From the NCBI GenBank assembly GCA_938028835.1, contig CALIMJ010000038.1:8808-72807 (forward strand): a stretch of DNA of 64,000 nt, given 5' to 3'. Below the pieces are notes generated by a model. It saw nothing but the letters and a program-made list of their open reading frames with translations. It was not told the origin of the DNA and searched no databases. How positions within the stretch are numbered: position 1 is the stretch's first letter; every line of letters starts with the position of its first letter. This stretch comes from an uncultured bacterium (lineage in GTDB: Bacteria; Sysuimicrobiota; Sysuimicrobiia; Sysuimicrobiales; Sysuimicrobiaceae). Position numbers and translations under genes: made by a program. Shown in pieces: positions 4,214 through 46,730 of this stretch.

Positions 4214-5664
4214 GGGACTTCCCGTTGATCTTCGAGCGGAGCGTGCCGGGCCGCCGCGGGTTTGGGTTGCCGGAGTCGGACGTGCCCGCCCAACCCCTGG
4301 AGGAGCTGGTGCCGCCGCAGGCCTTGCGGAGGCGGCCGCCCGCCCTGCCCGAGGTGAGCGAGCTGGATGTGGTCCGCCACTACACCCGGCTCAGCCACCG
4401 TAACTTCTCCATCGACGAGGGGTTCTACCCCCTGGGCTCCTGCACCATGAAGTACAACCCCAAGCTGCATGAGGAGCTGGCGCGGCTGCCGGGCTTCGCC
4501 CGCCTCCACCCCTACACGCCCGAGGAGCTGGCCCAGGGAGCGCTGCAGCTCCTGTGGGAACTGGGGGAGGAGCTGCGGGAGCTGGCGGGGATGGACGCGG
4601 TGACCTTCCAGCCCGCCGCGGGCGCCCACGGGGAGCTGGTGGGCCTGCTGGTGATCCGCGCCTACTTCGCTTCCCGGGGCGAGAAGCGCACCCGGGTCAT
4701 CGTCCCGGACTCCGCGCACGGCACCAACCCGGCCACCGCGGCCATGGTGGGGTACGAAGTGGTCACCGTGCGATCCGACGCCCGGGGCAATCTGGACTTG
4801 GCGGCCCTGGAGCAGTACCTGGACGAGCGCACCGCGGCGCTGATGTTGACCAACCCCAACACCCTGGGGCTCTTCGAGGAACAGGTGGACCGGATCTCGG
4901 AGCGCGTGCACGCCGTGGGCGCGCAGATGTACCTGGACGGGGCCAACTTCAACGCCATGGTGGGCATCACGCGGCCCGGTGACCAGGGGTTTGACGTGAT
5001 GCACATGAACCTGCACAAGACCTTCTCCACTCCCCACGGCGGGGGCGGTCCCGGAGCCGGGGTGGTGGCGGTGAAGTCCCACCTGGAGCCCTTCCTGCCC
5101 GTCCCCGTGGTGGTCCGGGACGGTGACCGGTACCGGCTGGACTTCGACCGGCCGCAGTCGGTGGGCCGGGTGCGGGCCTTCTACGGGAACTTCGCGAACC
5201 TGGTGCGGGCGTACGCGTATCTCCGGACGCTGGGAGCGGAGGGGCTGCGGGCGGTGGCGGAACACGCGGTCCTGCACGCCAACTACCTGCGCGTCCGGCT
5301 GGCCCCGTACTACGAGATCCCGTACCAGCGCATCTGCAAACACGAGTTCGTCGCCTCAGGCGTGCGACAGAAGCGGCGGGACGGGGTCACGACCCGGGAC
5401 ATCGCCAAGCGGCTGCTGGACTACGGTTTCCACGCTCCGACGGTGTACTTCCCCCTGATCGTGGAAGAGGCCATCATGATCGAGCCCACGGAAACGGAGA
5501 GCCTGCAGACCCTGGACGCGTTCGTGGACGCCATGGTCGCCATCGACCGGGAGTGCCGGGAGGACCCGGAAAAGGTGCGCACCGCTCCCCACACCACCGC
5601 TGTGGGCCGCCTGGACGAGGTGCGGGCGGCCCGCCAGCTGGACCTCCGGTGGAGGCCTGCCTGA
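4210..5664 (+). CDS. gcvPB: Glycine dehydrogenase (decarboxylating) subunit 2 (PLP-binding)
   Basis: ATG 4210 overlaps gcvPA TGA (ATGA); [30 protein letters not shown]-lysine motif; 484 aa. Confidence 0.85.
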
Positions 5665-17756: not shown

Positions 17757-19379
17757 CTACTCCTCCGGTGCCTCCAGCGGCCGGAAGGCCACAGCGGGCC
17801 CCAGGAGGTGCGCGGCCTGCTCCACCAGCGGGTCCCTGGGCGGCTCGTGCGGTGGAGAGGGTGGGGTGTCCGCCACCACGAACCGCAGCCGCAGGCGCCG
17901 GCCGAGGGCCTGCTGCAGGGCCTGTTCTACCAGAATCCGGTGCCGCGAATCCTGCAGGGTGCCGGCTGCGAACTCCCCGCCCGCTGGGAACTCCACCACG
18001 AGCTCGTCTGCGTCCAGCGCGGCGGGCTTGCCGTCCGCCAGCAGCGCGAAGGTGTAGGCACGCCTGGCCTTGACCTCCTCCAGGACGCGGGGCCACCGCG
18101 CCACCACCGAATCCCAGTCCAGCTCGGGTTCTACGGGTAGGGCGGACTGGATCGCAGGTCCGTCCGCCTCCGCAGTCCGGCCGGCCGGTACCGGCGCTTG
18201 TGCCGGCGGGGCGGGCGGTTCGGGTTCTGTCGCCTGCAGCATCCGCTCCAGCCTGAGCACGCGGCCACGCAGGCCCTCCAGGGTGGGGTCCGCGTCGGGC
18301 CGCGCCAGGCGCAGCAGGGCCAACTCCAGGTTGAGCCGGGGCTGGGTACTCCACCGGGCCTCGCTCTCCGCGGCCGCCAAGAGGGAGATGGCCCGCAGGA
18401 GCTCCTCTGGAGGGAAGCCCTGGGCCTGCTGGAGCAGCCGCGCGACCCGATCCCCAGGCGCATCCACCAGGTCCCGGAGGTCTGGGGAGGTACGCAGGAG
18501 CAGCAGGTCCCGGAAGTGGGAAACCAGACGCCGCAGCACCGCGCGGGGGTCCCGGCCGCTTTCCGCCACCCGTGCGGCCAGCCGCAGGGCGGCAGGGGCG
18601 TCGGAGTTCTGCACCGCCTCCGTGACCGCGTCCACCAGCTCGTCCTCCAGCAGGCCCAAAAGGCGGACCACGTCCGCTTCGTGGATGGGCCCTTCCACGC
18701 TGCTGGCCAGCTGGTCCAGCACACTCTCCGCATCCCGCAGCGCCCCGTCCGCGGACCGGGCGATCAGGTGCAGGGCGCCGGGGGTGATCTGCAGCCCCTC
18801 CTCCTGGGCGATGCGGGACAGCCGCTCCACCACCAGGGGCGTGGGGATCCGTCGGAACTCGAACCGCTGGCACCGGGAAAGGATCGTGGTGGGCAGCCGG
18901 TGGGGTTCGGTGGTCACCAATACGAACACCACGTGCGGGGGCGGCTCCTCCAGGGTCTTCAGCAGCGCGTTCTCCGCCTCCGTGGTGAGCATGTGGGCCT
19001 CGTCCAGGATGTACACCTTGTACCGGCTGGCCGCGGGCGCCAGGCGGACCCGCTCGCGGATCTCCCGGATCTCGTCGATCCCCCGGTTGCTGGCGGCGTC
19101 CAGCTCGATGACGTCCAGGGAGCTGCCCTCGGCGATGGCCCGGCACGCTGCGCAGCGGTTGCATGGGTCCGGCGTGGGCCCCTGCTCGCAGTTGAGGGCC
19201 TTGGCGAGGATCCGGGCGGTGGTGGTCTTTCCGGTACCGCGGTGGCCGCTGAACAGGTACGCGTGGCTGATCCGGCCGGTGGCGAGGGCGCCCCGCAGGG
19301 TACGGGTCACCGGCTCCTGCCCCACTACGTCGCCGAAGGACTGGGGCCTCCACTTGCGGTACAGAGAGAGATGCGCCAT
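17757..19379 (-). CDS. dnaX: DNA polymerase III subunits gamma/tau
   Basis: ATG 19379 (MAHLSLYRKWRPQSF...), Walker A GHRGTGKTT, zinc module CNRCAACR, Pro-rich tau C-terminal region; 540 aa. The longer six-frame ORF upstream is non-coding. Confidence 0.9.
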   Translation of the reverse strand: MAHLSLYRKWRPQSFGDVVGQEPVTRTLRGALATGRISHAYLFSGHRGTGKTTTARILAKALNCEQGPTPDPCNRCAACRAIAEGSSLDVIELDAASNRGIDEIREIRERVRLAPAASRYKVYILDEAHMLTTEAENALLKTLEEPPPHVVFVLVTTEPHRLPTTILSRCQRFEFRRIPTPLVVERLSRIAQEEGLQITPGALHLIARSADGALRDAESVLDQLASSVEGPIHEADVVRLLGLLEDELVDAVTEAVQNSDAPAALRLAARVAESGRDPRAVLRRLVSHFRDLLLLRTSPDLRDLVDAPGDRVARLLQQAQGFPPEELLRAISLLAAAESEARWSTQPRLNLELALLRLARPDADPTLEGLRGRVLRLERMLQATEPEPPAPPAQAPVPAGRTAEADGPAIQSALPVEPELDWDSVVARWPRVLEEVKARRAYTFALLADGKPAALDADELVVEFPAGGEFAAGTLQDSRHRILVEQALQQALGRRLRLRFVVADTPPSPPHEPPRDPLVEQAAHLLGPAVAFRPLEAPEE

Positions 19380-19420
19380 GGGTCCGGAGCGGGCCTGCCG
19401 ACACTGGTATTCTACCTGAA

Positions 19421-20308
19421 GTGGGACCGGACAGCTCCCTGCTGGCAGTGCGGATCGGCCTGGTGGCCCTGCAGGGGCTTGGCGCCTTGTGGGTCTACCA
19501 GGATGCCAGGCGGTGGTCCCGGGCCGCGTGGTGGTGGGGCCTGTTGGTGGCCGCAGGCGGGCCAGTGACCTTCCCCGCGTACGTGTTGCTGTTCCGGCCA
19601 CCCGCCGGGGAGTGGGGTGCCGCAGAGGTCCTCGCGGTGGCGAGTTTCGGGTTGCTCGCGGTCCCGCTGGCTGCCGGCCTGTTGGTGTACCCGTGGGAAG
19701 GGTTCGGGGCCGTGGCCACGGCGGTGGTGGCGCAGAGTGCGGCGCTGCTGGCAGGCTGCTGGCAGGTGCTGCGGCGCTACCGGCGGACGTGGTCCGGGCT
19801 GGGCCTCAGCCGGGCGGGCGCGCCGCGGTGGGCGGCGGTGGGAGTGGCGGCGGGGATTCCTCTCGTGGCCGCGGTCCACTACGCGGTGCAGCCCGCCGCG
19901 GTGTACCTGCTGGGACTGGTGGTGGGCCAGGAGCGCGCCCGAACCCTAGCAGAGCTGGAGCAGTGGTCCAATCCCCTCGTCCAGGCGATGCCCCCTCTGA
20001 GCGACTGGCCCGCGGTGGCCCTGTTCGCGGCCTTGGTGTGCGGGCTCGTGCCCCTGGCGGAGGAGGTATTCTTCCGAGGCCTAGCTTACCGCGCGGCCCG
20101 GCGCAGGCTCCCTCCGGGGTGGGCTGCGGGGCTGGTCGCGTTGGCCTTCGCCGCGGTGCACCTGCAGGTGGTGAACTTCCTGCCCATCGCGGTGCTGGGG
20201 TGGGCCTTCGCGGTGGCGGTGGAGCGCACGCGCAGCCTCGTGCCCGCGGTGGCGATGCACGCGGTCAACAACCTGGTGGCCCTCGTGGTGGCCTACGGGC
20301 AGCGGTAG
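19421..20308 (+). CDS. CPBP-family intramembrane metalloprotease (CAAX protease/Abi)
   Basis: Motifs EEVFFRG, FAAVH, HAVNN; multi-TM; 295 aa; start codon uncertain (no RBS). Confidence 0.7.
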   Translation: MGPDSSLLAVRIGLVALQGLGALWVYQDARRWSRAAWWWGLLVAAGGPVTFPAYVLLFRPPAGEWGAAEVLAVASFGLLAVPLAAGLLVYPWEGFGAVATAVVAQSAALLAGCWQVLRRYRRTWSGLGLSRAGAPRWAAVGVAAGIPLVAAVHYAVQPAAVYLLGLVVGQERARTLAELEQWSNPLVQAMPPLSDWPAVALFAALVCGLVPLAEEVFFRGLAYRAARRRLPPGWAAGLVALAFAAVHLQVVNFLPIAVLGWAFAVAVERTRSLVPAVAMHAVNNLVALVVAYGQR

Positions 20309-20666: not shown

Positions 20667-21617
20667 GTGTTGCGGAACTCCCAGGCGGATGTGTTCGAAC
20701 GGGCGCCCGCCCGGCCGCTGCGGCTGGGCCGGGCGGAGGTGTACGTGGGCACGTGCTCGTGGACGCGGGGTTTCGAGTCCTTCTACCCCCGGGGCTTCCG
20801 CAGTCGCCCGGAGGCGCGCCTGCGGTACTACGCCACGGTGTTCCCCACGGTGGAGGTGGACGCCACGTACTACGCCCTGCTCCCCCCGGACACCGCCCGG
20901 AAGTACGTGGCGTGGACGCCGGATGGGTTCCTGCTGAACGTGAAGGCCTTCGGGCTATTTACCGGCCAAGGCGCGGAGACAGCCCGTCTGCCGGAGGGGG
21001 TCCGGGCGCTCCTGCCGGGTGCTCTGCGGACCCGTCGGCGCGTGGTGGACCGCGACCTCCCGGAGGAGGTGGAGACGCTGTGCTGGGAACTGTTCCTGGA
21101 CTTCTGCCGGCCGCTCCGGGAGGCGGGGAAGCTCGGCTACCTGCTGTTCCAGTTCCCCCGGTGGGTCACCTACTCGGAGCGGTTCTTCCGCAGGCTGGAT
21201 TACCTGGTCCGCATGACCCGGGGCTACCGGCTGGCGGTGGAGTTCCGCCACGGGTCGTGGGTGGAGGCTTCGGTGCGGGACCGGGTGTGGGGCGCCCTGC
21301 GGGAGCGGGGCCTCGTGTATGTGGTGCCGGACGAGCCGCAGCTGGAGTGGACCGTTCCACCGGAGGTGGCGGTCACCGCGGACTGGTCGGTGGTGCGGTT
21401 CCACGGCCGCAACGCGGAGGCCTGGTCCGCCCGCGGCGCGGACGTGAAGGAGCGGTTCGACTACCTGTACACCGAGGAGGAGCTGCGTCCCTGGGCGCGG
21501 CGCGCGCGGCGGCTGGCCGCGGAGGTGGACCGGCTGTTCCTCATGATGAACAACTGCGAGCGGGGCCAGGCCGCGGTGAACGCGCAGATGCTGCTGGACC
21601 TGCTGGGGGGAGGCTGA
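20667..21617 (+). CDS. DUF72-family protein (YecE-like)
   Basis: GGAGGG RBS; DUF72 pattern (VYVGTCSWTRG..., YYATVFPTVEVDATYY, FEFRHGSW); 316 aa. Confidence 0.7.
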   Translation: MLRNSQADVFERAPARPLRLGRAEVYVGTCSWTRGFESFYPRGFRSRPEARLRYYATVFPTVEVDATYYALLPPDTARKYVAWTPDGFLLNVKAFGLFTGQGAETARLPEGVRALLPGALRTRRRVVDRDLPEEVETLCWELFLDFCRPLREAGKLGYLLFQFPRWVTYSERFFRRLDYLVRMTRGYRLAVEFRHGSWVEASVRDRVWGALRERGLVYVVPDEPQLEWTVPPEVAVTADWSVVRFHGRNAEAWSARGADVKERFDYLYTEEELRPWARRARRLAAEVDRLFLMMNNCERGQAAVNAQMLLDLLGGG

Positions 21618-21618
21618 G

Positions 21619-22551
21619 CTGAGCCCGCCGACCCTGCAGGACGTCCTGGACGCGCAAAGGCGGATCCAGCCCTGGGTCCTGCGGACCCCCGTGGTCTCCG
21701 CCTGGGCCCTGGGGATTTGCCTGAAGCTGGAGTCGCTGCAGGTCACTGGGTCGTTCAAGCCCCGGGGCGCGTTCAACCACATCCTGCGCCACCGCGACCG
21801 GTGCAGGCAGGGAGTTGTGACCGCCTCCTCCGGCAACCACGGCCAGGCCGTGGCCTACGCGGCGCGGTCTCTGGGCCTGCCCGCGGTGGTGGTGGTGCCC
21901 GAGGACGTGGTGGCGGTGAAGGAGCGGAGCATCCGGGCCTGGGGAGCAGAGGTGGTGCGGTGTGGCCGCACCACCGCGGACCGCATCGCCGCGGCCCTGG
22001 ACCTGGCACAGATCCGGGGGCTGCACTACGTCCCGCCCTTCGACGATCCGGATGTTATCGCCGGACAGGGCACGGTGGGGCTGGAAATCCTCACCCAGTT
22101 CCCTGCGGTGCGAACCGTAGCGGTGCCGTGTGGCGGCGGGGGGCTGCTCTCAGGCGTGGCCGTGGCGGTGAAGAACCTGCGGCCGGACGTCCAGGTGGTG
22201 GCGGTGGAGCCGGAGGGAGCCGCGTGCTTTTTCGCTTCCTGGAAGGCGGGCAGGCGGGTGCGCCTGAACCGGGTACAGACCGTGGCGGACGGGCTGAGGG
22301 CGGTGGAGCCGGGAGAGCTGACCTGGAGGTGTGCTTCCCAGTTCGTGGACCGCTTCGTGACCGTGACCGACGTGGAGATCCAGCGGACGGTGGTGCGCCT
22401 GTTGGAGGTGGCGAAAGTGGTGGCGGAGCCCTCGGGGGCGGCCGCGGTGGCTTACTGCCTCCGGGAACCGTCGGAGGGGACGCTGGCGGTGGTAAGCGGA
22501 GGCAACCTGGACCCGGAGCTGATGGTGCGGTGGGTGAGGGAGGCCCCTTGA
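21619..22551 (+). CDS. Threonine/serine dehydratase-like PLP-dependent enzyme; 5' boundary uncertain (first canonical start is GTG 21691)
   Basis: PLP motif LQVTGSFKPRGAFN, glycine loop SSGNHGQAVAYAA. The conserved N-terminal segment (PTLQDVLDAQRRIQPWVLRTPVV) is encoded at 21619-21690 in frame. That stretch has only a CTG as a possible start, 2 nt after the DUF72 stop. Confidence 0.65.
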   Translation: MSPPTLQDVLDAQRRIQPWVLRTPVVSAWALGICLKLESLQVTGSFKPRGAFNHILRHRDRCRQGVVTASSGNHGQAVAYAARSLGLPAVVVVPEDVVAVKERSIRAWGAEVVRCGRTTADRIAAALDLAQIRGLHYVPPFDDPDVIAGQGTVGLEILTQFPAVRTVAVPCGGGGLLSGVAVAVKNLRPDVQVVAVEPEGAACFFASWKAGRRVRLNRVQTVADGLRAVEPGELTWRCASQFVDRFVTVTDVEIQRTVVRLLEVAKVVAEPSGAAAVAYCLREPSEGTLAVVSGGNLDPELMVRWVREAP

Positions 22552-22576
22552 CATGCGAATACCTGTTCGCCATAAT
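22548..22576 (+). promoter_or_regulatory. Near-consensus sigma-A promoter TTGACA-17-CATAAT
   Basis: TTGACA at 22548-22553, 17-nt spacer, CATAAT at 22571-22576. AT-rich consensus elements stand out in a ~70% GC background. Predicted TSS ~22583, i.e. ~170 nt before the RNase-H-like ORF. Confidence 0.5.
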
Positions 22577-22753
22577 GGCCACAGAAAAGGCGTCGGGGTG
22601 CCGGTTTGGTGGCGCGCGCGTACGCGGTCGAGGGAACCCGGACGAGGCGCAGGGTTCGCAGGCTGTGGCAGGCCCTGGGGGACGACCGTCGACTCGTGCG
22701 CCTCAAGCTCTCCCTGGTGGCCGTCCTGTACCTCTGTGCGGCGACGGTGGCGC

Positions 22754-23173
22754 GTGGCGGCTAAGTGGCTGCACCTGGTGGTCGGTGCGTTCCCTCAGTC
22801 CCGGGGTAGCCGCTACGGGGTGGTGGTGGCCTCGGACGGGGTCAGCGTCCGCAGCTGGGGCGGCTGGCAGACGGAGGCGGACGAACCGGCTGCTGCGATC
22901 CGGGCGGTCCTGGAGGGGCTTTGGGTGGCTCGGTCGTTCGGCCGCAGGGTGCGGGTATGCGTTCACCCGCCGGAGGTGGCTTCTTGGCTGGGTCGGCGCG
23001 CACCGGTCCCCGACCGTCACGTTCGGTATTTCGTCCAGGTGAGGGCCCTCAGCCATACCTACCGGCAGGTGGAGTTCCTCCCGGCGAGTCCTGCGGAGGT
23101 GGAGCTGGCCCGCCGGGCCGCTGGACCGGGTGGGCCGCTGGCCGCGGGCGATCTGGAGCTTGCTTCCCGGTGA
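22754..23173 (+). CDS. RNase-H-like fold protein (degenerate); function unknown
   Basis: High-GC3 frame; VVVASDG ... QTEADEPAAAIRAVLEGL resembles the RNase HI beta1 / alphaA region, but the later catalytic Asp residues are not evident. Alternative GTG at 22736. Confidence 0.3.
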   Translation: MAAKWLHLVVGAFPQSRGSRYGVVVASDGVSVRSWGGWQTEADEPAAAIRAVLEGLWVARSFGRRVRVCVHPPEVASWLGRRAPVPDRHVRYFVQVRALSHTYRQVEFLPASPAEVELARRAAGPGGPLAAGDLELASR

Positions 23174-23222
23174 GGCCCTGAACCGCAGGGCATCCGAGGC
23201 CGTATGGACGGGTGTGGGGCTG

Positions 23223-23299
23223 TGGCGCGCCCGGAGGGACTCGAACCCCCAACCTTCTGATCCGTAGTCAGATGCTCTGTCCAGTTGAGCTACGGGCGC
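23223..23299 (-). tRNA. tRNA-Arg (anticodon ACG)
   Basis: Manual cloverleaf: 7-bp acceptor GCGCCCG/CGGGCGC, anticodon loop CUACGGA, T-loop GGTTCGAGTCC, encoded CCA. Confidence 0.85.
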
Positions 23300-23307
23300 G
23301 GGACCGG

Positions 23308-23787
23308 ATGAATTCTAGCAGAGCCCTTCCCCTGGTGTCCACGGCGCTGGTGGTGCTGCTGGCGGCGGGCGCCGCGCGAGCCGCACCGCGCGGGCGGACC
23401 CTTATCGTGCCGGGTCGGGCAGTGGGCCCGGTGGTTCTCGGGATGACCCCGCAGCAGGTGGTACGGGAGCTGGGGCCTCCCGTGGGTCCTGCCCGGGCCC
23501 ACGCGGGGGCGAAACTGTCCTGGCCGGGCCGGGGGATCACGGTGCGGCTGGACCGGGAAGGACGGGTGGACGCGGTGTTCGTGGAGAGTCCGGAGTACCG
23601 CACCGCGGGAGGGGTCGGGGTGGGTAGTAGACGGGAGGAGGTGGTGGCGGCGTTCGGGCCCGCCTCCCACGCCCAGGAGGACGGCACCACCCTCATCCTG
23701 GCATACCCCGCCCTGGGAATCTCCTTTGCCATCCGCAAGGACCGGCAGGACCGTGTGGAGCTTGTGATGGTATACCGGCCCGGCTGA
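23308..23787 (+). CDS. Secreted protein of unknown function (signal peptide)
   Basis: ATG 23308; N-terminal signal peptide ALVVLLAAGAARAAP; 159 aa. Confidence 0.5.
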   Translation: MNSSRALPLVSTALVVLLAAGAARAAPRGRTLIVPGRAVGPVVLGMTPQQVVRELGPPVGPARAHAGAKLSWPGRGITVRLDREGRVDAVFVESPEYRTAGGVGVGSRREEVVAAFGPASHAQEDGTTLILAYPALGISFAIRKDRQDRVELVMVYRPG

Positions 23788-23802
23788 GCCCCAGCGCGGT
23801 GT

Positions 23803-24909
23803 TCAGGGAGTCGCACGGAGGGTCACCACCTGCCGGGGAAGGCGGCTCAGCACCTCCGGCCCGGAAGGGCCCAGGATCACCGCCTCCTCCAGGCGGATGC
23901 CGAAATCTCCGGGCAGGTAGATCCCCGGCTCCACCGTGAAGGCCATCCCCACTTCGAGGATTTCGGAGTTCGTCCCGTGGAGGGAGGGTGGCTCATGCAC
24001 GGAAAGCCCCAGCCCGTGGCCGGTCCGGTGTAGGAAGTGGGCGCCGTAGCCCGCAGCTTCGATCACCTGCCGGGCCGCCCGATCCACATGGGAAGCCGGG
24101 ACACCCGGCTGCGCGGCTGCGAGCGCTGCCTGGAGCGCCCGGTCCACCACCTGCCACACCTCCCAGAACCGCTGGGTGGGCTCTCCAAGGAAACCCACCC
24201 GGGTCACGTCGGAGCAGTAGCCCTCCACCCTCGCCCCCAGGTCCACAAGGATGGGCTCTCCCGGCTGCAGCCGCCTGCCTCCAGGCCTGTGGTGGGGCAG
24301 GGCGCTGTTTGGACCCGAGGCCACCAGCACGAAGGGCACCTCGTCCGCTCCGGCCGCGGCCATGGCCCTCCGGGCGGCTTCTGCGACTTCTCCCTCCGAA
24401 GTCCCCACCCGGCAGGCCCGGAAGGCCGCCTGCACCCCCTCGTCCGCAACCCGAGCGGCCCGGCGCAGGGCCTCCACCTCGAAGGGGTCCTTGCGCGCTC
24501 TCAGGGGTGCCAGCAGGGCGGAGGCCAGGCAGTAGCGAGCGTGCGGCAGGCGGCTTTGGATCAGTAGAAGGTGGTCGGCCCTGAGGTCGTCCGACACCGC
24601 CACGCACTGGGGCGGTCCTCCCAGGAAGGCGAGGGCATCCAGCAGGGCGGAACCCGGGTCGTCCGCGTCCCCGTAGGCGAACACAGATACGGCGATGCTC
24701 TGCTGGACTGATTCCAGGTTCAGCCTGGGACTGACGACCGCCTGGCCGTCTGGAGTCACCAGCAGGAGGCACAGCCGTTCGTCCGCTAGCGGCGACCAGC
24801 CGCACACGTAGCGGAAGTCGTCCCCCGGTCCCAGGGCCACAAGCTCGCAGCCTGCGGCGGCCATCCGCCCACGCAGGCGCTCAAGGCGTGCGGGCTGCGG
24901 GCTGGCCAC
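23803..24909 (-). CDS. M24-family Xaa-Pro aminopeptidase/prolidase
   Basis: Creatinase N-domain plus pita-bread fold with metal ligands (HRTGHGLGLSVHE, ...EPGIY); 368 aa; begins 1 nt after the upstream gene's stop. Confidence 0.8.
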   Translation of the reverse strand: MASPQPARLERLRGRMAAAGCELVALGPGDDFRYVCGWSPLADERLCLLLVTPDGQAVVSPRLNLESVQQSIAVSVFAYGDADDPGSALLDALAFLGGPPQCVAVSDDLRADHLLLIQSRLPHARYCLASALLAPLRARKDPFEVEALRRAARVADEGVQAAFRACRVGTSEGEVAEAARRAMAAAGADEVPFVLVASGPNSALPHHRPGGRRLQPGEPILVDLGARVEGYCSDVTRVGFLGEPTQRFWEVWQVVDRALQAALAAAQPGVPASHVDRAARQVIEAAGYGAHFLHRTGHGLGLSVHEPPSLHGTNSEILEVGMAFTVEPGIYLPGDFGIRLEEAVILGPSGPEVLSRLPRQVVTLRATP

Positions 24910-46683: not shown

Positions 46684-46730
46684 ACGGGCCGGCAAAGGAA
46701 CGCCACCGCGCAGGGAGAAAGGAACATCGG

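Follow-up and report, generated by a model that had tools for sequence, protein, structure and literature searches.

In B. subtilis and S. aureus, the Gram-positive LexA box reads CGAACN4GTTCG (PMC9578287, Table 1); it has also been given as CGAACRNRYGTTYC (PMC2248561). Small membrane proteins that are induced in the SOS response and inhibit cell division are a recurrent theme (PMC9578287). In ImuB, a catalytically dead SOS protein, the motif QLPLWG has been validated experimentally as binding the sliding clamp (PMC10421592). Canonical clamp-binding motifs take the form Q-phi-x-[LM]-[FL] or Q-phi-x-[LM]-x-[FL], and Hda carries QLSLPL (PMC11139829). Here, we describe a locus that shares features with each of these systems. 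It lies in a stretch of 64,000 nucleotides (nt) of contig CALIMJ010000038.1, from an uncultured member of the Sysuimicrobiota (CSP1-3); we call this whole stretch the window. The locus consists of a promoter, a gene for a micro-protein and a gene for an RNase-H-like protein. We read it, with a probability of roughly 0.7, as an SOS-inducible two-gene operon, whose products we propose to be a micro-protein division inhibitor and an RNase-H-fold clamp binder.

The Sysuimicrobiota are uncultured and abundant in soils and hot springs, and the text of a paper devoted to them does not mention LexA or the SOS response (PMC11604079). The supplement of that paper holds no lexA or recA entries (PMC11604079), and our literature search found no SOS system described for Sysuimicrobiota/CSP1-3. 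The locus would provide a first look at the DNA-damage response of this lineage.

Results

The locus opens with a sigma-70-type promoter on the + strand (22548-22576), in which a 17-nt spacer separates the -35 hexamer TTGACA (22548-22553) from the -10 hexamer CATAAT (22571-22576). The initial annotation of this DNA had singled it out as the most canonical promoter of the window, and it is indeed the sole 11/12 match across all 64 kb. Three further sites match at 10/12, two of them upstream of tRNA genes, and a scan of 16 kb returned 2 sites where 0.3 were expected. In related loci, the -35 (TTGA..) and -10 (.TA..aT) elements are kept in 16 distinct promoters. The stop codon of the upstream PALP gene (TGA, 22549-22551) falls inside the -35 hexamer. 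Promoter geometry alone places the predicted transcription start at 22583 (A, + strand), 7 nt past the -10 hexamer, which would give a 5' untranslated region (UTR) of about 23 nt.

The key feature of this promoter had been overlooked. The spacer between -35 and -10 is filled by a palindrome, CGAATACCTGTTCG (22556-22569, no strand assigned), in which the arms CGAAT and GTTCG enclose ACCT and which, with its flanking bases, reads GCGAAT..GTTCGC (22555-22570). On its match to the Gram-positive LexA box and its conservation, we assign it as a LexA-type operator (SOS/Cheo box). It agrees with CGAAC-N4-GTTCG at 9 of the 10 specified positions and is the only exact match to CGAAY-N4-GTTCG in 64 kb. 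The pattern GCGAAT-N4-GTTCGC is kept in all 14 window-lineage loci that cover the promoter region (11 distinct sequences, one of which has GAAC), and among them the central 4 nt and the flanks drift while both arms stay. Because the operator occupies the core-promoter spacer, LexA binding would block RNA polymerase, and on sequence grounds the promoter is most likely under DNA-damage (LexA/SOS) control. A position-weight scan of the window and 17 loci found no further box above 16 bits beyond the orthologous sites. Two 1-mismatch boxes, at 5337 and 45530, were rejected, as they lie inside coding sequence (an uncharacterised open reading frame, ORF, and a methyltransferase gene, respectively).

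The box is tied to lexA in sister lineages. A profile search recovered 45 more distant relatives of the RNase-H-like protein, and a second, word-indexed search yielded 72 proteins, many of them with PF13456; we inspected eight contigs that encode such distant relatives. Five of the eight (L020, L021, L023, L025 and L026) share the order PALP, lexA, small ORF, RNase-H-like gene, and the best local alignments of the RNase-H-like homologues in these loci are about 33-39% identical. The small ORFs behind lexA encode homologues of the micro-protein, with ..FWDDRQAVRLK.. followed by a hydrophobic helix. At most junctions of the lexA operons, start and stop codons overlap or abut (ATGA, TGATG, TAATG). 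The LexA proteins themselves are canonical, with a VSAG (Ala-Gly) cleavage site, the GDSM serine and the ATVKR lysine. Two boxes of the form CG[ATC]AC-N4-GTTCG precede each of the five lexA genes (about -40 and -75 relative to the start codon), and the proximal box sits between TTGA.A and TA...T in a register identical to that of the window promoter. As box and register are shared with lexA of the sister lineages, we regard the window promoter as the counterpart of a self-regulated lexA promoter. In the window lineage, lexA is missing from its slot in the operon, and the promoter directly drives the two downstream genes. Ca. Tepidifontimicrobium thermophilum, a member of the family Sysuimicrobiaceae (PMC11604079 supplement), is close to the window lineage, with 84% identity in the RNase-H-like protein.

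The first of the two genes encodes the micro-protein. It spans 22606-22764 on the + strand (52 amino acids, aa), from a TTG start to a TAA stop (22762-22764), and is called from its codon signal and its conservation. A Shine-Dalgarno-like GGGGTG (22595-22600, + strand) lies 5 nt upstream of the TTG, and relatives show GGAGGTG, GAGGTG or GGGGTG 5-7 nt ahead of a TTG or GTG start. The initial annotation had let the GC-rich coding frame resume only at about 22736; a different frame has a third-position GC of 0.84-0.89 over 22610-22759 and encodes the conserved 52 aa. A tblastn search with the micro-protein found it at the equivalent position of 10 related loci (about 52-69% identity). Among nine sequences, synonymous and non-synonymous codon differences number 193:201 in frame, compared with 59:323 and 54:316 in the other two frames. 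Hypothetical proteins of 46-52 aa have already been called at this position by other pipelines.

The two halves of the micro-protein are built differently. The N-terminal half is rich in Arg and varies among relatives, its indels always comprising whole codons. The C-terminal half is conserved as DDRR.VRLKL.LV.VLYLCAA.V.RGG, in which the invariant motif DDR..RLK leads into a hydrophobic helix at the C-terminus (about aa 33-49). On the Kyte-Doolittle scale, hydropathy reaches its maximum of 2.3 within this helix (aa 35-49), and AlphaFold2 predicts one long helix, with a predicted local distance difference test (pLDDT) score of about 91 over aa 31-50. We read the modelled protein as tail-anchored in the membrane, with an Arg-rich cytoplasmic N-terminus. 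Searches of NCBIfam, PADLOC and PHROGs returned no family for the micro-protein or for the RNase-H-like protein encoded behind it.

Much of this gene had been taken for a structured leader. The region 22577-22780 folds at -97.1 kcal/mol, against a mean of -99.9 for dinucleotide shuffles (z = +0.61), and an Rfam scan of 21500-24500 at E <= 10 returned tRNA only, with nothing for the leader. RNAalifold over 9 relatives gave a consensus of -10.8 kcal/mol, and its covariation term of +0.35 lends no support to a leader structure. The inverted repeat GGCCACAG/CTGTGGC, described as an 8-bp element, does exist, but it is 7 bp long, plays no part in the minimum-free-energy fold and is not kept in relatives. 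The fold of the 5' UTR is likewise within the shuffle range (z = -1.43). A 6-bp hairpin, GUGCCG / UGGCGC (22598-22616), brackets the start codon of the micro-gene; one of its pairs is CG in three relatives and GC in three others, and the hairpin may be due to chance or may act as a weak modulator of translation.

The second gene (22754-23173, + strand) encodes a protein of 139 aa with an RNase H1 fold and without the catalytic carboxylates, as judged from homologue alignment and fold. We place its start at GTG 22754 (MAAKWLHLVV...) because homologues of 136-145 aa align there. As this GTG overlaps the last 11 nt of the micro-gene, translation of the two genes may be coupled. An exact look-up of the 139-aa product found none on record. 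The public data contain a 206-aa ORF called from ATG 22553 (P0001, 99% identical to the window), which begins within the promoter and runs through the micro-gene region in a frame other than that of the micro-gene. Such a call is an annotation artefact, and the locus is likely to be mis-annotated systematically.

The product had been described from its sequence as RNase-H-like with a degenerate pattern, and both parts of that description are borne out: it has the RNase H1 fold and no acidic residue at any DEDD column. AlphaFold2, run on the family alignment, gave a pLDDT of 85.8, the order b1-b2-b3-a1-b4-a2-a3-b5-a4 and a disordered C-terminal tail. The best Foldseek matches in the PDB are the Rv2228c N-terminal domain, Halobacterium RNase H1, LC11 and Sulfolobus tokodaii RNase HI; the top hits 3hst, 4e19 and 3u3g have E-values of 2e-8 to 6e-6, and template modelling (TM) scores to type 1 RNase H, normalised to the query, are about 0.66-0.75. 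RVT_3, which the initial annotation had named as a candidate family, does match the ORF, but at 11.9 bits against a gathering threshold of 21.6; members of the wider family carry PF13456.

To compare the active site, we used both a profile alignment to Rv2228c and a family alignment with four true RNase HI outliers, which keep DEDD, as its anchor. In the window protein, the DEDD columns are V/A/H/R. Across the family, the first position is never Asp, the second is Ala in 77 members and the fourth is mostly Arg or Ala; the third is Asp in 73 members and His in the window subfamily. With DEDD replaced, the protein has the fold of RNase H without its canonical active site.

A second conserved feature is the C-terminal tail. 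The window protein ends ...GDLELASR, with the codons for D-L-E-L-A at 23150-23164 (+ strand); the subfamily consensus is DLELV.R, in which E141 and L142 are nearly invariant. As its pLDDT is below 50, the tail is probably disordered. Family tails consist of a conserved short motif after a variable linker, and 90 of 116 members carry one. LPL[WF] tails, ..DLPLW(AAAS), occur in 55/116, including all lexA-operon members that we looked up; QLxL[PV]x tails (..QL[ESAD]LPL.. or similar) occur in 14/116, one of them exactly QLSLPL; and the window-type tail ..DLELV.R occurs in 15/116. The true RNase HI outliers have no such tail. Because the family tails resemble QLPLWG of ImuB and QLSLPL of Hda, we propose that they bind the sliding clamp. 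The clamp gene dnaN was not identified among the annotated genes of the window.

One subfamily, of 158-160 aa (L022, L024 and L027), is encoded in a different setting, between a ceramidase-like gene and a GAF histidine kinase gene, and its QLxLPL tails are near-canonical clamp motifs. A search for LexA-type boxes found a 1-mismatch site in L027 and none in L022 or L024. Upstream of the genes of this subfamily lies an AT-richer region of about 200 nt, in which L022 and L024 share a GCGTTATA-like element.

Downstream, the operon faces a convergent tRNA-Arg(ACG) gene (23223-23299, - strand, identified by Rfam). This gene lies outside the operon and has its own promoter, TGGACA-18-TAGAAT with an extended TG (10/12; 23341-23312, minus strand). 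The closeness of the ORF to this tRNA had been noted, with a gap of 50 nt; the stop codon ends at 23173, which leaves 49 nt. We found no intrinsic terminator between 23173 and the tRNA-Arg gene, and the spacer folds within the shuffle range on both strands (z = -0.36 and +0.43). The other 10/12 promoter matches of the window are TTGACA-17-TAAGAT, directly upstream of tRNA-Asn (around 33635, minus strand), and a site at 46684 (minus strand).

A comparison of the tRNA-Arg flank among relatives, suggested as a means of detecting an insertion, points to a stable neighbourhood. The tRNA adjoins the RNase-H-like gene in 15 of the 15 window-lineage loci that reach it, and the order PALP, small ORF, RNase-H-like gene, tRNA-Arg, next gene is kept in the covering window-lineage relatives, down to about 55% protein identity. 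The flanks are syntenic housekeeping genes: dnaX (17757-19601 in the window), Rce1-like, DUF72 and PALP on one side, and M24 peptidase, CN-hydrolase and NDK on the other. The RNase-H-like gene and the tRNA are separated by a spacer of variable length, from 49 nt in the window to about 335 nt in L001, L005 and L010 (non-coding in L001 and L005). The corresponding spacer in L006 (4436-5960) is about 1.5 kb long; on visual inspection, its ORFs look like those of a NUDIX hydrolase and a short-chain dehydrogenase, with no integrase seen.

Upstream, the PALP (threonine-dehydratase-like) ORF of the window (21691-22551) is at most 286 aa long, compared with 310-323 aa in relatives; an alternative start, a frameshift or a sequencing error near 21618-21690 could be responsible. 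PALP and DUF72 lie about 73 nt apart in the window and directly adjoin each other in L018. A second, unrelated RNaseH_like gene (PF04308) is present in L018 (3568-4038), beside recR-ybaB-dnaX and a few kb upstream of the operon.

Discussion

In the model that we favour, a LexA dimer would sit on CGAAT-N4-GTTCG in the spacer of a near-consensus promoter and keep RNA polymerase out. DNA damage would lead to RecA-stimulated self-cleavage of LexA and free the promoter, a short-leadered mRNA would start near 22583, and the two coupled genes would be translated from it. The 52-aa micro-protein would insert into the membrane and serve as the SOS cell-division inhibitor of the lineage, a role suggested by analogy with SidA, YneA and SosA and by its place in the lexA operon. 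The 139-aa protein would act by binding and not by catalysis, using its disordered tail to dock on the beta sliding clamp, much as ImuB does.

Several observations weigh against this model. Using LexA of B. subtilis and of a member of the Sysuimicrobiota and RecA of E. coli as tblastn queries against the window and all loci, we found no lexA and no recA in the window or in any window-lineage locus. The left half-site of the box is imperfect, with GAAT where the consensus has GAAC; the window has a single box, compared with two ahead of lexA in the sister lineages; and no other SOS gene or box within 64 kb indicates a regulon. The tail of the window protein, DLELA, is the most degenerate in the family and fits neither canonical clamp motif, as it has no Gln and has Ala in place of Phe/Leu. 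Conversely, the best clamp motifs occur in the 158-160 aa subfamily, whose genes have neither lexA beside them nor a clear box, and the SOS link may therefore extend to only some members of the family. In sequence, the micro-protein resembles no known division inhibitor, and one subclade (L011, L013, L015 and L016) does without its gene: there, the RNase-H-like gene alone stands behind the LexA-type promoter, at a distance of about 50 nt, and is thus the constant partner of the operator.

If LexA has been lost from the lineage, or if the palindrome is the operator of some other dimeric repressor, then the operon would not be under SOS control. The missing lexA, the GAAT half-site and a single box with no regulon partner in 64 kb would all fit such an arrangement, yet we think it unlikely. 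The same box stands in the same register ahead of lexA in five sister-lineage loci, and self-regulation of lexA is the rule; no other regulator gene is conserved nearby; and both arms have been kept while the RNase-H-like protein diverged to about 55% identity, which would be unexpected without a protein that binds them. For the micro-protein, the main alternative to a division inhibitor is a toxin. The SOS toxins TisB and DinQ are very small, hydrophobic, single-helix proteins encoded behind a LexA box, and a micro-protein of similar build behind a LexA-type box could be a membrane toxin of the same kind, acting through depolarisation and persistence, with the RNase-H-like protein unrelated to it or a modulator. 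This, too, strikes us as improbable. The long Arg-rich cytoplasmic N-terminus predicted for the micro-protein is unlike those toxins, no antisense RNA or antitoxin feature is evident, and in sister lineages the gene is tightly coupled to lexA and to the gene behind it, an arrangement found more typically with checkpoint genes that adjoin lexA or share its operon.

The initial annotation had considered other origins for the locus, and these have fared worse. A structured cis-regulatory leader, riboswitch or small RNA at 22577-22760 was suggested by the 7-bp inverted repeat and GC-rich self-complementary runs, to which the 6-bp hairpin around the micro-gene start, with its one compensatory pair, may be added. 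The idea is now scarcely credible, as the stretch folds no more stably than its shuffles, matches no Rfam family, gains nothing from covariation and is absent from the subclade that keeps both the promoter and the downstream gene; its strong coding signal, conservation at the amino-acid level and indels in multiples of three identify it as a protein-coding micro-gene. We give as little credence to the proposal that the ORF and its AT-rich promoter are the remnant of a mobile element integrated at the tRNA-Arg 3' end. It is true that the ORF abuts this end, that the spacer varies in close relatives and that a 23-nt imperfect direct repeat (19/23) joins 22661-22683 to 23218-23240, which overlaps the tRNA 3' end. 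However, the gene order is the same in every window-lineage locus, the flanks are housekeeping genes with no integrase or transposase, PADLOC and PHROGs gave no hits, and sister lineages carry the gene pair in a lexA operon with no tRNA called beside it. A match of this quality is, by a rough estimate, borderline by chance, and because one copy lies in the constrained coding sequence of the conserved micro-protein, we judge the att-like repeat to be a chance match. A recent integration event at tRNA-Arg is rejected on the conserved gene order and the lack of an integrase. A further reading takes the 139-aa protein for an active nuclease, with a non-canonical site formed by the invariant E80, H107, Q101 and R103 (numbered on the 145-aa query of alignment A1). 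Several polar residues are indeed invariant, and the third Asp is kept in 73 members of the wider family, but the family as a whole lacks three of the four metal-binding carboxylates, and the window subfamily lacks the fourth as well. We know of no RNase H-fold nuclease that works without these carboxylates, and consider catalysis very unlikely.

We thus retain the SOS-inducible operon, with a division inhibitor and a clamp binder as its proposed products, as the preferred reading. Its regulation is of a known kind, and its effectors are new: to our reading of the literature, a LexA-type cassette of these two genes is previously undescribed. Operon and operator tie two uncharacterised families to lexA, a membrane micro-protein of 46-75 aa and a dead RNase-H-fold protein with a tail that resembles a clamp motif. 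More tentatively, and as a possibility that we would rate well below the operon itself, the dead RNase H may represent a new class of SOS effector, a replication brake or adaptor docked on the clamp, which together with the division-inhibitor micro-protein would form a checkpoint cassette ancestrally co-transcribed with lexA in the Sysuimicrobiota. If the tail binds the clamp, then this protein would join ImuB as the second dead enzyme fold to have been turned into a clamp-binding factor of the SOS response. The locus also holds a practical lesson, in that a micro-gene in GC-rich DNA was mistaken for a structured RNA leader and gene callers also mis-call the region.

Compared with described systems, the promoter stands closest to the LexA promoters of Gram-positive bacteria. 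Like them, it has a 14-bp palindrome with GAAC/GTTC-type arms and 4-nt spacing that overlaps the -35/-10 spacer; unlike them, it has GAAT as its left arm in the window lineage, where the boxes before sister-lineage lexA have G[ATC]AC, and lexA is not at the window locus. The micro-protein, for which we infer LexA control, recalls SidA of Caulobacter, YneA of B. subtilis and SosA of S. aureus, which are small single-pass membrane proteins under a LexA-type box (PMC9578287); in sister lineages, its gene is part of the lexA operon. It shares no sequence similarity with these proteins and appears to differ from them in architecture: it is predicted to be tail-anchored and to expose almost nothing outside the cell, its long Arg-rich N-terminus lying in the cytoplasm, whereas YneA and SosA act through extracellular domains.

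The RNase-H-like protein has two points of reference. With ImuB, a component of the ImuA'-ImuB-DnaE2 mutasome, it would share an SOS context, a catalysis-dead enzyme fold and a disordered C-terminal motif (PMC10421592). That motif is QLPLWG in ImuB and DLPLW in the lexA-operon subfamily, whereas the window tail is DLELA and not LPLW. The folds also differ, ImuB having that of a Y-family polymerase and the window protein that of RNase H1, and neither imuA nor dnaE2 is a neighbour here. With type 1 RNase H lacking the basic protrusion (Pfam RVT_3/PF13456), the window protein shares the fold and the order of secondary-structure elements, and its profile aligns end to end with Rv2228c. It departs from those enzymes in having V/A/H/R in place of DEDD, a sub-threshold Pfam score, an added tail motif and what we propose to be an SOS context.

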